A DNA stretch of 64,000 bases, taken from assembly GCA_964291405.2 (NCBI GenBank), contig OZ219926.1:416001-480000 (forward strand). The letters are read 5' to 3'. Shown one piece after another: positions 17,008 through 23,643 of the stretch (position 1 is the stretch's first letter; each line of letters begins with the position of its first letter). The notes beneath the pieces are model-generated. The model saw nothing but the letters and a program-made list of their open reading frames with translations, was not told the DNA's origin and made no database searches. Origin of the DNA: Thermodesulfobacteriota bacterium (GTDB lineage: Bacteria; Desulfobacterota; Binatia; Bin18). Both the position numbers and the translations under genes were made by a program.

Positions 17008-18588
17008 CTACTCCGGTGTGCGCAGCTTATAGCGCTGAATTTTTCCGGTCGCGGTCTTGGGTAGCTCGGAGACAAACTCGACCCAGCGCGGGTATTTATG
17101 CGGTAGCGTGCGGTCTTTGACAAAAAGACTCAGTTCCCGGGACAGGTCTGCTGAGGCGGTCCGGCCTGTTTTGAGCACCACGAATGCCTTGGGTTTGATC
17201 AGACGGTTGTCGTCTTCCCAGCCGACAATCGCAGCCTCCAGCACGGCCGGGTGTTGAAACAGAATCCCCTCGACCTCGGCCGGCGAGACCCATTGGCCTG
17301 AGACCTTGAGCATATCGTCCGCCCGGCCGCAGTAGGCAAAATACCCCTCTGCGTCTTGGGTATAGGTGTCTCCGGTGTTCATCCAGTCTCCCAGCATGGT
17401 TTGCGCGGTCTTCTCAGGGTTGTTCCAGTAATAGGCGGCCCCGGACTGGCCCCGAATCAGGAGGCGACCCATCTCGTCGACAGCAACAGGCCGCCCGCTT
17501 TCATCCACAATCTTGGCCTCGTAGCCAGGAATCGGGCGACCGCTAGTGCCTGGCTTGTAATCGTCCAGACGGTTGGAAATGAAAATGTGCAGCATTTCGG
17601 TCGAGCCGATCCCATCCAGAATCGTCAGGCCGGTGCGCTCTTTCCAGCGCCGGAACACTTCAGCTGGCAGAGCCTCGCCCGCCGAGACACAGGCGCGTAA
17701 GGACGGGAATGCGCGCGGGCTCTGCTCCAAGGCGAGTAACTGGGCGGCGTACAAAGTTGGCACCCCGAAATAGAGCGTGGGCCGAAAACGTTCGATCAGT
17801 TCGAACGTCATCTCCGGTGATGGGCGCTGGTCGCTTAAGACTGCGGTTGCTCCGCACCAGAGCGGAAACGTCATGGCATTGCCCAGGCCGTAGGCGAAGA
17901 ACAGCTTGGCCGCGGAAAAACATACGTCCTCTTCGGTCATACCCAGCACGGCTTGGGCGTACTGCACACAAGTGACCACCATGTCGCGCTGGCGATGGAC
18001 CGCGCCTTTGGGCCGGCCGGTCGAACCTGAGGAATACAGCCAGAAGCAGGCGTCTTCGGCCGAAACTGGCGCGGGCTCCAGCTCTGTAGACGCGGATCGC
18101 ATAAGGGCCGCGAGAGGCGAGTCCTCCCCGGCGACGCATAGGGACTGCGGTGTGCGTTCGGCCCCGGCAAGGGCGGGTTCTACAGTCTGGGCGTACTCAG
18201 TGGAATAGGCGACAAGCGTACACTCGGAGTCGTCAATCATATATTGATAATCGGCCGCCCGGAGCAGTGTGTTGACCGGCACTGGCACAATCCCAGCCTT
18301 GATAGCCCCCCAAAAAAGAAAGAAGAATTCGGGACAGTCTTTCACGATCATCAGCATCCGGTTGCCGGTCCCGACACCCATCGAGCGCAAAGCATGGCCA
18401 CACCGATTGACCTGCTCGGCAAGCTGACCATAGGTCACATCGCCGTGGACCGTACGGATGACAATCTTCTGCGCCCGCCCTTCTTCCAGATGCCGGTCGA
18501 TAAACGGTACGGCTACGTTAAAACGTGGAGCAAACCGGATGGACGCTGAGGAATCCGCCGGATCAATAGCAACGGTATTGGCCTGCAT
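17008..18588 (-). CDS. bclA: Benzoate-CoA ligase
   Basis: FWLYSSGSTGRPKG, SAAKLFFAYGLGN and DGIGSTEMLHIF. Lies next to boxB. Confidence 0.92.
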   Translation of the reverse strand: MQANTVAIDPADSSASIRFAPRFNVAVPFIDRHLEEGRAQKIVIRTVHGDVTYGQLAEQVNRCGHALRSMGVGTGNRMLMIVKDCPEFFFLFWGAIKAGIVPVPVNTLLRAADYQYMIDDSECTLVAYSTEYAQTVEPALAGAERTPQSLCVAGEDSPLAALMRSASTELEPAPVSAEDACFWLYSSGSTGRPKGAVHRQRDMVVTCVQYAQAVLGMTEEDVCFSAAKLFFAYGLGNAMTFPLWCGATAVLSDQRPSPEMTFELIERFRPTLYFGVPTLYAAQLLALEQSPRAFPSLRACVSAGEALPAEVFRRWKERTGLTILDGIGSTEMLHIFISNRLDDYKPGTSGRPIPGYEAKIVDESGRPVAVDEMGRLLIRGQSGAAYYWNNPEKTAQTMLGDWMNTGDTYTQDAEGYFAYCGRADDMLKVSGQWVSPAEVEGILFQHPAVLEAAIVGWEDDNRLIKPKAFVVLKTGRTASADLSRELSLFVKDRTLPHKYPRWVEFVSELPKTATGKIQRYKLRTPE

Positions 18589-18590
18589 GC

Positions 18591-20033
18591 CTACTCTCCC
18601 CTTGGGCTATCTGCCCATTGCACATAAGGAAAGTTGAGGGGTTGATTGTTGATCCCGCGGGCCGGCGGGGCAATCCAGCTTGCCATTGCGCCAGGTTCGG
18701 TAACCGGTTGCATGAGCGAGGCGACAAAGGCGTGATCGTCCTCGGTCGGCAACCACGAGGCAAGCTGGCGCTGCCACTCTTCGGCTGTCACCATTTCTCC
18801 CTGTGGCGATATGTGGGCATCGGAGAAAGCACCGATTTTGCGGTAGAAGCCCCGATGGGGCAGATAGAGCGGGTTCTCAATGCCCTGCCGTGCAATCACC
18901 TTGTTCCAACGGTCCAGACCCCGCTGCGAGTCGGTAATATAATCGTCGCGCAAGCGTTCGTTAATGGCGAGCAGGGCCGGGACGTCCTCACAGACGATGG
19001 TGCTGTCTGCTGGGCGCTGGACCGGCCAAGTCAGCTCCGAGAGCCGATGGTCGTCATTGATGCGGGTTTCGCGATAGCGACCTTTGAGGCCGGTCGTAAA
19101 ATAGTCGGCGGCGTTGGTCGAACGTTCTTGGCCGAACAGGTCGAGCGAGACGCTGTAATGAAAATTGATGAAGCGCTGCAAGGTCGGCAGGTCTATAGCC
19201 CCGGTCGCACGGATGCGCTCAGGGTCATCGGTCTTGAGTTCGTTCATGACCTCACACGTGCGTTGGATAATCCGCATCACCCCAGTCTCACCCACAAACA
19301 TATGGTGCGCCTCTTCCGTCAGCATAAACTGGCAGGTCCGGGCTAGCGGATCGAAGCTGGATTCGGCCAACGAGGCGAGCTGATATTTCCCGTCACGGTC
19401 GGTGAAAAAGGTAAACATGAAATAGGACAGCCAGTGCGGCGTCTCTTCGTTAAACGCCCCCAGGATACGCGGTTTGTCCGCATCACCGGAATGGCGTTCC
19501 AGCATCATCTCGGCTTCTTCCCGGCCATCACGACCAAAATAGGCGTGCAGGATATAGACCATGGCCCACAGATGACGCCCCTCTTCAACATTAATCTGAA
19601 ACAGGTTGCGCAGGTCGTACAGCGAGGGGCAGGTGTGGCCCAGATGGCGCTGCTGTTCGACGGAGGCCGGCTCGGTATCCCCCTGGGTCACGACCAAACG
19701 GCGCAGGAGGCTGCGATATTCGCCTGGAACTTCCTGCCAGACCGGTTCGCCAAGGTGGTCTCCAAAGGCGATACGGCGCTCCTCCTGCGGCTTGGCCAGG
19801 AAAATGCCCCACCGGTAGTCAGGCATTTTCACATAGTCAAAATGGGCCCAGCCGTCGGACTCGACACTGATAGCCGTGCGCAGGTAGACGTCATACGCCT
19901 GCGTCCCTTCTGGACCACAGCTATTCCACCAGCGTAAATAATTCGGTTGCCACGACTCTAAGGCACGTTGGAGTCGGCGGTTCTCGGCGAGAGCAACATT
20001 GTTCGGAATGCGCTCAGTATAATCAATCGCCAT
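18591..20033 (-). CDS. boxB: Benzoyl-CoA 2,3-epoxidase subunit BoxB
   Basis: IDY.ERIPNNV.L, QGDTEPASVEQQ, diiron ExxH motifs EEGRHLW and EEAHHM, TDRDGKYQL. Confidence 0.97.
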   Translation of the reverse strand: MAIDYTERIPNNVALAENRRLQRALESWQPNYLRWWNSCGPEGTQAYDVYLRTAISVESDGWAHFDYVKMPDYRWGIFLAKPQEERRIAFGDHLGEPVWQEVPGEYRSLLRRLVVTQGDTEPASVEQQRHLGHTCPSLYDLRNLFQINVEEGRHLWAMVYILHAYFGRDGREEAEMMLERHSGDADKPRILGAFNEETPHWLSYFMFTFFTDRDGKYQLASLAESSFDPLARTCQFMLTEEAHHMFVGETGVMRIIQRTCEVMNELKTDDPERIRATGAIDLPTLQRFINFHYSVSLDLFGQERSTNAADYFTTGLKGRYRETRINDDHRLSELTWPVQRPADSTIVCEDVPALLAINERLRDDYITDSQRGLDRWNKVIARQGIENPLYLPHRGFYRKIGAFSDAHISPQGEMVTAEEWQRQLASWLPTEDDHAFVASLMQPVTEPGAMASWIAPPARGINNQPLNFPYVQWADSPRGE

Positions 20034-20035
20034 GG

Positions 20036-22651: not shown

Positions 22652-22700
22652 CTTAATATATCATTTATAAAGTGTATAGTATATAATTTGTTATATTAAG
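22652..22700. promoter_or_regulatory. Widely spaced inverted repeat, putative PaaX operator
   Basis: CTTAATATATCA-N25-TGTTATATTAAG, with 11 of 12 positions complementary. Confidence 0.6.
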
Positions 22701-22704
22701 TCAA
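22676..22704 (-). promoter_or_regulatory. Sigma70-type promoter of the ECH-boxC-boxB-bclA operon
   Basis: Minus strand TTGACT (22704-22699), 17 nt, TACTAT (22681-22676) in a very AT-rich intergenic region. Confidence 0.65.
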
Positions 22705-22740
22705 GCAAAATGTTATTGCTTCGCATATGATTTGTGAGAC

Positions 22741-23643
22741 ATGCGTCCACGTTCTCTCCTCTTTACTCTGTTCGGTGACTTTGTTCGCAATTACGGCGGT
22801 GAGGTCTGGGTCGGCAGCCTGATCCACCTCATGCAGGAGTTTGATATTGCTCCGCAAGCGGTACGAGTCGCACTTTCACGCATCACTGCCGACGGCTGGC
22901 TACGCAATCGTCGGCTTGGCAAGAAAAGCTTCTACGGACTGACTGCTCAAGGCGAACGGCGCATGGCTGAGGCGGCAAGTCGGATCTATAAACTCGATAA
23001 TCTGGCCTGGAATGGTGAATGGCTGATTGTGACCTACACCATTCCAGAGAAACGCAAAGTCGTTCGGGATAAAATTCGGCGTGAATTAAGTTGGACTGGC
23101 TTTGGTCAACTTGCCAGCAGCGTGTGGATCAGTCCGCGCGACCTGCGACCGCAGCTCATCGAAATTGCTCAGCGCTATGACATTGCGCCCCATCTCGACT
23201 TCTTTACCGCTCGCTACCGTGGTCCAGCAGAGAATCAGCGCCTCGTTGACAAGTGTTGGAATCTTGATGCAATCCAGCAAGGCTATACGGCCTTCATCGA
23301 GGTGTACCGCAGCAAACTCGACCAGCAGCAACTCCTCTCTGATGAGCTCTGTTTTTGTGAAGAGATCCAACTCATCCATGAGTATCGCAAGTTTTTATTC
23401 AGTGACCCTGGTCTGCCGAACAATCTCTTACCCAACACTTGGCGTGGGCACGAGGCCGCCCACCTCATGCGCGAGTACTATCAATACGTTGCCCCAGGGG
23501 CCCATCGTTTTTTTGAGAGCGTTTTTGTTGGGCATCCGGATAATGCCGCCTTCATCAGAAAGCTCGGGAGGCATCCCCGTCTTGATCCGTTTGCAGAAGA
23601 ACTCCGCCGTCAACAGCAGCAGTACTCTGCTGTCGATCTCTAG
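22741..23643 (+). CDS. paaX: PaaX-family transcriptional repressor
   Basis: RSLLFTLFGD, AVRVALSR, W.GEW.IV, L.WTGFG.L and YRKFLFSDPGLP..LLP..W.G. Confidence 0.93.
   Translation: MRPRSLLFTLFGDFVRNYGGEVWVGSLIHLMQEFDIAPQAVRVALSRITADGWLRNRRLGKKSFYGLTAQGERRMAEAASRIYKLDNLAWNGEWLIVTYTIPEKRKVVRDKIRRELSWTGFGQLASSVWISPRDLRPQLIEIAQRYDIAPHLDFFTARYRGPAENQRLVDKCWNLDAIQQGYTAFIEVYRSKLDQQQLLSDELCFCEEIQLIHEYRKFLFSDPGLPNNLLPNTWRGHEAAHLMREYYQYVAPGAHRFFESVFVGHPDNAAFIRKLGRHPRLDPFAEELRRQQQQYSAVDL

Follow-up and report, generated by a model that had tools for sequence, protein, structure and literature searches.

A BoxA-less box operon with an accessory crotonase-PaaX module in a Binatia genus, and its predicted control by PaaX

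Introduction

In Azoarcus, the reductase BoxA has been described as the partner of the benzoyl-CoA epoxidase BoxB (PMC4498308, in the part of the text available), and clusters of the type bcl-boxB-boxC have been described without boxA in SAR324 bins (PMC4782131) and in Sedimenticola selenatireducens CUZ (PMC4453571), the available texts of which contain no occurrence of the term boxA. The repressor PaaX is regarded as sensing phenylacetyl-CoA for the paa pathway, and its gene rarely stands outside the context of a phenylacetate-CoA ligase gene (PMC13186573, in the portion accessible). Here we describe a locus in a 64,000-nucleotide stretch of DNA (hereafter the window; contig OZ219926.1, positions 416,001 to 480,000) from a Binatia bacterium, in which the box genes boxC, boxB, and bclA follow a crotonase gene, ECH, that diverges from a gene for a PaaX-family protein.

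A literature search, whose scope left aside supplements and the primary BoxB structure paper (PMC3190730), found no discussion of a missing BoxA beyond PMC10803450, in which 13 of 148 ligase contexts were without one epoxidase subunit. No paper linking PaaX with box genes was found in a search that likewise excluded supplements and the main subscription papers. On balance, and with modest confidence, we favor a reading in which the locus encodes the aerobic benzoyl-CoA epoxide (box) pathway in an operon that would operate independently of BoxA, with an accessory ECH-PaaX module and repression by PaaX that would be relieved by an aryl-CoA.

Results

Genes of the locus

The features of the locus that carry the argument are listed below.

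17008..18588, minus strand: bclA, benzoate-CoA ligase family, last gene of the box run (TIGR02262, 645.9 bits, cut-off 375; AMP-binding and AMP-binding_C domains)
18591..20033, minus strand: boxB, diiron benzoyl-CoA 2,3-epoxidase subunit (TIGR03225, 848.7 bits, cut-off 499)
20036..21763, minus strand: boxC, 2,3-epoxybenzoyl-CoA dihydrolase (TIGR03222, 898.9 bits, cut-off 712)
21764..21814, minus strand: gap between ECH and boxC (sequence comparison and terminator scan)
21815..22636, minus strand: ECH, atypical crotonase-fold protein, 273 aa (Pfam ECH_1, 150.5 bits; Q110 and A130)
22637..22740, no strand: divergent control region, AT-rich, conserved across 15 species (spacer alignment)
22741..23643, plus strand: PaaX-family repressor (TIGR02277, 287.7 bits, cut-off 264.55; PaaX, PaaX_M, and PaaX_C domains)

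The open reading frame (ORF) map and the family scores bore out the arrangement reported by an earlier sequence-only reading of the window, a minus-strand run ECH-boxC-boxB-bclA diverging from a plus-strand PaaX gene. The spacers measure 51 nt between ECH and boxC, 2 nt between boxC and boxB, 2 nt between boxB and bclA, and 104 nt between ECH and PaaX. BoxB, BoxC, and PaaX scored above NCBIfam equivalog cut-offs, and the ligase exceeded the cut-off of a subfamily model, a match to which does not fix the exact acid activated. Pfam agreed with these assignments, and by family score BoxB, BoxC, and the ligase are clearly members of the box pathway families. BoxB aligned without a gap to Azoarcus BoxB (3PER) over residues 3-473 with 762 bits. 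Residues E121, E151, H154, D212, E241, and H244 (own numbering), which we take to be the iron ligands, are conserved relative to 3PER and were invariant in our BoxB alignment (A1).

Absence of BoxA from the genome, the genus, and a large BoxB lineage

Neither BoxA, BoxR, nor BoxD was found among the 53 window ORFs scanned against NCBIfam and Pfam, as had been noted earlier, and profile and protein searches extended this absence to the whole genome (4.95 Mb in three contigs, 97.5% complete). Nothing in the genome exceeded the BoxA cut-off of 459, the best match having 29 bits and covering the ferredoxin part only. The best match to the BoxD model NF008868 reached 125 bits against a cut-off of 444, and a BoxR-type query from G174, a genome of the same class, matched only a plain shikimate-kinase part (72 bits). 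The presence of boxA and boxR elsewhere in the genome had been set beforehand as a possible refutation of a variant box system, and neither is there. The accompanying genome-wide search for paa genes returned no match to PaaA or PaaK and a single PaaX; BoxB is likewise single-copy. A candidate FNR-type reductase domain, one weak match to PF00175 (23.7 bits, C3:648709-648987), was rejected; the sizes of the ORFs around it, an unannotated run, resemble a respiratory-complex operon.

Throughout the genus, BoxB was found in 27 of 28 genomes (26 above the cut-off), with 77-97% identity across those 27 species. At E<=1e-10, BoxA was found in none of the 28, many of which are single-contig assemblies, and PaaA was also absent from all 28. 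Species genomes were then scanned with the BoxB alignment, yielding at least 600 relatives; the best 80 loci were kept and, with three loci from relatives, gave a set of 83. The boxA gene adjoins boxB in 39 of these, all from Beta- or Gammaproteobacteria and in the order boxC-boxB-boxA. It is not next to boxB in the other 44, some of which lie on contigs too short to tell. Among the 83 loci BoxD was likewise confined to those linked to BoxA. In a BoxB tree of 86 rows built with a quick method, all 39 BoxA-linked loci fell into one clade of 46 rows (Shimodaira-Hasegawa-like approximate likelihood ratio test, SH-aLRT, 99), and the BoxB described here fell outside it (SH-aLRT 99). The remaining 40 rows, for which no boxA was seen within the examined flank, come from Alphaproteobacteria, metagenome-assembled genomes of Dehalococcoidia and Limnocylindria, Methylomirabilota/Rokubacteria, Dormibacterota, and this genus. 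Five of the genomes behind BoxA-less loci were searched in full, and all five, including those of the two isolates Azospirillum sp. TSO22-1 and Oceanibacterium hippocampi, were without BoxA at the same threshold.

Because the whole genus and loci from other phyla are without BoxA, the missing reductase is a trait of a large BoxB lineage and not of this locus. The earlier proposal of a variant box system thus held in that boxA, boxR, and boxD are missing genome-wide, but not in its novelty, as BoxA-less boxC-boxB-bclA clusters are widespread and bcl-boxB-boxC clusters are already published.

No recurrent substitute reductase emerged near BoxA-less clusters when ORFs of 66 loci plus the window were clustered and the recurrent neighbors assigned with Pfam, a weak negative in view of the crude clustering, in which ORFs were picked greedily and some antisense frames were chosen. 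The neighbors that did recur were transporter parts, an amidase, an Rrf2 regulator, a short-chain dehydrogenase/reductase (SDR), a PaaK-like ligase, and a HAMP-cyclase. The regulators of BoxA-less box clusters are varied.

A BoxR-type protein (HTH_3 plus SKI) is encoded beside boxC in G174 (L024:3525-4598) and also in the BoxA-less loci L105 and L106, and an Rrf2-family gene lies upstream of boxC in L049, in a cluster of three BoxA-less loci. The BoxB on one contig entitled 'Candidatus Binatia' (L034) groups within the genus, beside G526. The numeric record prefix of L034 is shared by L190, a contig with a PaaX relative (74%), and the title of L034 may reflect a binning error.

Distribution of the crotonase-PaaX module

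An ortholog of PaaX was found in 14 of the 27 other species of the genus at 72-95% identity, making 15 of 28 with the genome studied here. All 14 have ECH next to PaaX and diverging from it, and a pyridoxal phosphate (PLP)-dependent decarboxylase downstream of PaaX, as does the window:

23718..25148, plus strand: PLP-dependent decarboxylase (Pyridoxal_deC, 327.9 bits), 74 nt past PaaX, with which it is possibly co-transcribed

The full order, with bclA, boxB, boxC, and ECH read leftward and PaaX and the decarboxylase rightward, was supported by a visible boxC start in 13 of the 14 short loci and, for the fourteenth, through L186. A metagenome contig (L189) has the same arrangement. A sample of the phylum yielded PaaX relatives in only 3 of 400 other genomes, at 29-30% identity. 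In G526, identities to the locus were 72% for PaaX, 76% for ECH, 79% for BoxC, and 74% for BclA, the divergence of PaaX tracking that of its neighbors. A decarboxylase 83% identical to that of the window lies downstream of PaaX in L192 and L193, whose PaaX and neighbors belong to the G582 type; G582 is from the sister family. In the PaaX of G518 the aligned sequence is cut by a stop at position 293 of 298, and its reading as a pseudogene was rejected, the protein simply having a shorter tail. We read these patterns as those of an old two-gene accessory module that would have been lost repeatedly, at least five to seven times, with exchange among species possible.

The divergent control region

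The region between ECH and PaaX contains a promoter-like sequence and a split inverted repeat.

22676..22704, minus strand: promoter-like TTGACT-17-TACTAT, directed towards ECH
22652..22663, no strand: left arm of the split inverted repeat, CTTAATATATCA, downstream of the -10 element (repeat I2)
22689..22700, no strand: right arm of the split inverted repeat, TGTTATATTAAG, over the -35 element and spacer (repeat I2)

The arms are complementary at 11 of 12 positions and lie 25 nt apart. Of 2000 dinucleotide shuffles, 22 gave a repeat of equal quality, and the site is the only one of its kind in the genome when up to two substitutions per arm are allowed. The whole 104-bp spacer is rich in A and T and shows strong conservation among the 15 PaaX-bearing species. 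Within it, the block GCTTGACTT..TATAACA...AATATAAAG was retained in seven of seven aligned regions upstream of PaaX relatives (64-100% identity), and TTGAC(T) was conserved ahead of differing downstream genes (alignment A4).

Other gene contexts, in which the block-bearing PaaX relatives are 64-74% identical to PaaX of the locus, supply the strongest evidence here. In G582, the relative faces another crotonase, 24% identical to ECH, that retains the canonical glutamates, and next to it a BoxB-like protein of 386 aa; L193, L194, and L195 are of this type, and of them L193 and L195 were aligned, both partly covered. The relative in L191 faces a BclA-like ligase, and that in L190 faces an unassigned gene. 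More distant relatives (39-40%) face a BoxB-like gene and a crotonase in L205 and a BclA-like ligase in L203. Since the block recurs upstream of differing genes, it looks as though PaaX moves together with a promoter/operator of its own and is positioned ahead of operons for aryl-CoA oxygenases. That PaaX controls the leftward promoter is well supported as a prediction, drawn from the conserved promoter/operator block that accompanies PaaX relatives before other operons. One further locus, L196 (PaaX 42%, with PaaH-like and crotonase genes), resembles a paa-type cluster; its putative oxygenase ORFs gave no NCBIfam match at 1e-40.

Evidence that limits the reach of PaaX

Several observations weigh against control of the whole run by PaaX. 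A survey of boxB neighborhoods for PaaX, suggested by the sequence-only reading, was positive in the same place in the 15 genus species, but none of the 83 loci from other lineages had a PaaX within the examined flank. Within the genus PaaX is missing from 13 of 28 species, 12 of which retain boxB, and the crotonase is gone as well in 9 of the 10 PaaX-less species examined. Six of these have boxC directly against the decarboxylase (G609, G502, G647, G494, G478, and G110), two have boxC near cdaA (G486 and G462), and in G695 none of the queried genes lies upstream of boxC. G614 has an ECH without its first 34 residues, abutting cdaA, which is a deletion remnant. On a DNA tree of genus boxB genes (26 members, leaving out G703 with a partial boxB and G635 with none), the module requires at least seven changes, five of them forced by well-supported branches, and box therefore does not depend on the module. 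The operator is itself not uniform, as inspection by eye shows changes towards the outer end of its right arm in about 5 of the 15 species. Finally, the 51-nt gap upstream of boxC corresponds to the boxC-proximal upstream DNA of PaaX-less species, so the gap may have its own boxC promoter, with PaaX controlling ECH alone.

By eye, the gap contains a weak promoter-like TGGCAT-17-TAGAGT, and the terminator scan found no terminator-like site in it. Because an ancestral gap holds a weak promoter-like site and no terminator, box transcription may proceed from both promoters. The earlier claim of PaaX control over the box operon is thus upheld as to the promoter/operator, conserved in 15 of 28 species, but weakened by the accessory nature of the module and by the ancestral 51 bp that boxC retains upstream; box transcription may be under PaaX control only in part.

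Contigs from RNA libraries (two runs of one study, X19 and X20) covered ECH (751 nt, three differences), parts of boxB, the PLP decarboxylase, and the gene following bclA, and one from a relative extends past the ECH stop codon towards boxC; such contigs indicate neither transcription nor its level and were not counted as support, and their non-coverage of PaaX is meaningless.

The atypical crotonase

Aligned to 5Z7R, ECH has Q110 and A130 at the two positions of the catalytic glutamates of enoyl-CoA hydratases. The glutamine of the GGGLQ motif is retained in 14 of 14 members of the ECH family (alignment A2), in which two unrelated crotonases have glutamate. Among the 25 best of 72 families, ECH reached no NCBIfam cut-off. 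Going by its residues at the two catalytic positions, ECH is probably not an ordinary hydratase. It had been proposed that this extra crotonase may process the ring-opened product or a substituted benzoyl-CoA; the crotonase fold is indeed present, but both catalytic glutamates are gone.

BoxB-like proteins associated with PaaX relatives

The BoxB-like protein (386-392 aa) is encoded in G582 (L183:11952-13112) and in L193, L194, and L205. It scores 211 bits with TIGR03225, below the cut-off of 499, and is 34% identical to BoxB. Some 80 N-terminal residues are missing and there are two internal deletions, with the iron-ligand motifs intact. Its gene always stands beside a canonical crotonase gene and a divergent PaaX relative, and in L205 it adjoins genes for an aldehyde dehydrogenase and a thiolase. 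Similar sub-cut-off matches occur in G291 and G036. The BoxB-like protein and its crotonase may form an undescribed aryl-CoA oxygenase system.

Neighboring genes and other features of the window

Beyond the end of the box run lies a gene whose type adjoins bclA in 12 of the 15 longer genus loci:

13559..16996, minus strand: zinc-ribbon / adenylate-cyclase / AAA_16 / TPR protein, 1145 aa, 11 nt past bclA

In some Reyranella loci a HAMP-cyclase gene is a recurrent neighbor of boxC. Two PaaX-less species encode an Amidohydro_2 protein between bclA and the cyclase gene (G110, L023:13552-14655; G478, L180), and a 45% relative is encoded near the BoxB-like operon of G582 (L183:17039-18142). We take Amidohydro_2 to be a family that includes aromatic-acid decarboxylases.

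Elsewhere in the window are other aromatic-catabolism genes at 8715-10346, 57883-58800, and 58908-59684 (an RPE65-type dioxygenase, a BphC-like extradiol dioxygenase, and an alpha/beta hydrolase), as well as several amidases and SDRs. On the minus strand at 1193-2549, MmeI-type restriction-modification domains fall on separate ORFs (MmeI_N at 1908-2549 and a partial MmeI_Mtase at 1193-1657), and the gene looks broken. The segment 17008-25148 shares 40-79% of sampled words with sequencing runs labeled sponge metagenome (X3, X5, X8, X9, X13, X14, X16, and X18) and with one labeled coral metagenome (X17), which is no more than a hint at a habitat.

Discussion

The favored reading can be set out as a sequence of predicted steps. 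BclA would make benzoyl-CoA, BoxB would epoxidize its ring, and BoxC would open the ring. PaaX would bind CTTAATATATCA-N25-TGTTATATTAAG, which brackets the TTGACT-17-TACTAT promoter, and so block leftward transcription of ECH and probably its own rightward transcript. The ECH transcript probably reads through the 51-nt gap into boxC-boxB-bclA. Repression would end when PaaX is released on binding an aryl-CoA, most likely the benzoyl-CoA formed by BclA, an effector we favor on two grounds alone: the run contains a single ligase, which is of the benzoate type, and the genus has no paa genes. As no BoxA occurs in the genus, electrons would reach BoxB from a non-dedicated redox partner.

The evidence that limits the reach of PaaX can also be taken to mean that ECH and PaaX are self-contained, with PaaX repressing only ECH and itself, together with the PLP decarboxylase, while boxC-boxB-bclA are transcribed from a promoter in their own gap, under some other regulator or none, as in PaaX-less species. 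The module is dispensable, given the species that retain boxB after losing it and the number of changes on the boxB tree, and the gap resembles the upstream DNA of PaaX-less species, in which the spacer between the decarboxylase and boxC can be as short as 103 bp. We nonetheless regard this arrangement as rather unlikely, for no terminator-like site separates ECH from boxC, and elsewhere the PaaX/operator cassette faces genes for BoxB-family oxygenases or benzoate-CoA-ligase-like proteins, pointing to aryl-CoA oxygenase operons as its targets and not to this crotonase. Alternatively, PaaX might act as proposed but respond to phenylacetyl-CoA, as in E. coli, or to some other aryl-CoA. The protein does pass the PaaX equivalog cut-off, its closest named relatives (about 52% identity) are Bacillales proteins called PaaX by their sources, and relatives at 40-66% face BoxB-like oxygenases of unassigned substrate; but a dedicated source of phenylacetyl-CoA is not evident, since neither PaaK nor PaaA was found in the genome, nor PaaA in any of the 28 genus genomes, and the sole CoA ligase in the controlled run is of the benzoate-CoA ligase family. 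A different effector therefore strikes us as improbable.

The pairing of Azoarcus BoxB with BoxA, as described in the accessible part of PMC4498308, might suggest that box genes without BoxA are inactive relics. We consider this very improbable, in view of the conservation of BoxB in 27 of 28 species at 77-97% identity with its iron ligands intact, the occurrence of BoxA-less clusters in several phyla, and the report, in the available text of PMC4453571, that the Box proteins of Sedimenticola CUZ, whose cluster has boxB plus boxC, were highest on benzoate with oxygen.

A broader proposal, advanced tentatively and as no more than a possible extension of the favored reading, is that this PaaX clade is a benzoyl-CoA or aryl-CoA sensor that moves with its promoter/operator cassette and is dedicated to single-component BoxB-family epoxidases. 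These would have no dedicated reductase and would draw electrons from the general ferredoxin pool, the short BoxB-like oxygenase with its crotonase included. If true, a conserved PaaX clade before BoxB-family operons in paa-less genomes would widen both the ligands and the targets of PaaX and would make available a small candidate biosensor for aryl-CoA whose operator is defined. The textbook BoxAB pair covers one BoxB clade, and a large group spanning several phyla has BoxB and BoxC without BoxA or BoxD; the reductant of BoxB and the handler of the semialdehyde become directly testable questions.

Comparison with known systems

With the box cluster of Azoarcus/Aromatoleum evansii and Burkholderiales (boxA-boxB-boxC, boxD, bclA, boxR), the locus has the BoxB, BoxC, and ligase families in common, BoxB aligning without gaps. 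It differs in having no BoxA, BoxD, or BoxR genome-wide, in the order boxC-boxB-bclA, and in a BoxB that lies outside the BoxA-linked clade. The bcl-boxB-boxC clusters of SAR324 and S. selenatireducens CUZ are similarly minimal, being described in the available texts without boxA or boxD, but those texts (PMC4782131 and PMC4453571) mention neither PaaX nor a crotonase module such as is present here. BoxR and BzdR, benzoyl-CoA-responsive proteins that combine a helix-turn-helix domain of the XRE type with a shikimate-kinase-like one, would do the same presumed job, that of an operon-side repressor released by a CoA thioester, but PaaX belongs to an unrelated protein family.

The phenylacetyl-CoA-responsive PaaX of Escherichia coli and Pseudomonas, which acts on paa, pac, and sty genes, has the same three domains as the PaaX of the locus, which scores above the equivalog cut-off and matches E. 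coli PaaX (8A39) with 147.6 bits. As in E. coli, the gene diverges from its presumed target, and the predicted operator consists of two distant inverted half-sites over the promoter. The E. coli site has the form TGATTC(N27)GAATCA (PMC9493321, in the portion available), whereas the half-site here is CTTWWATAT. In contrast to the PaaX of E. coli and Pseudomonas, the PaaX described here occurs in a genome and genus without paa genes, and its neighbors are of the BoxB family.

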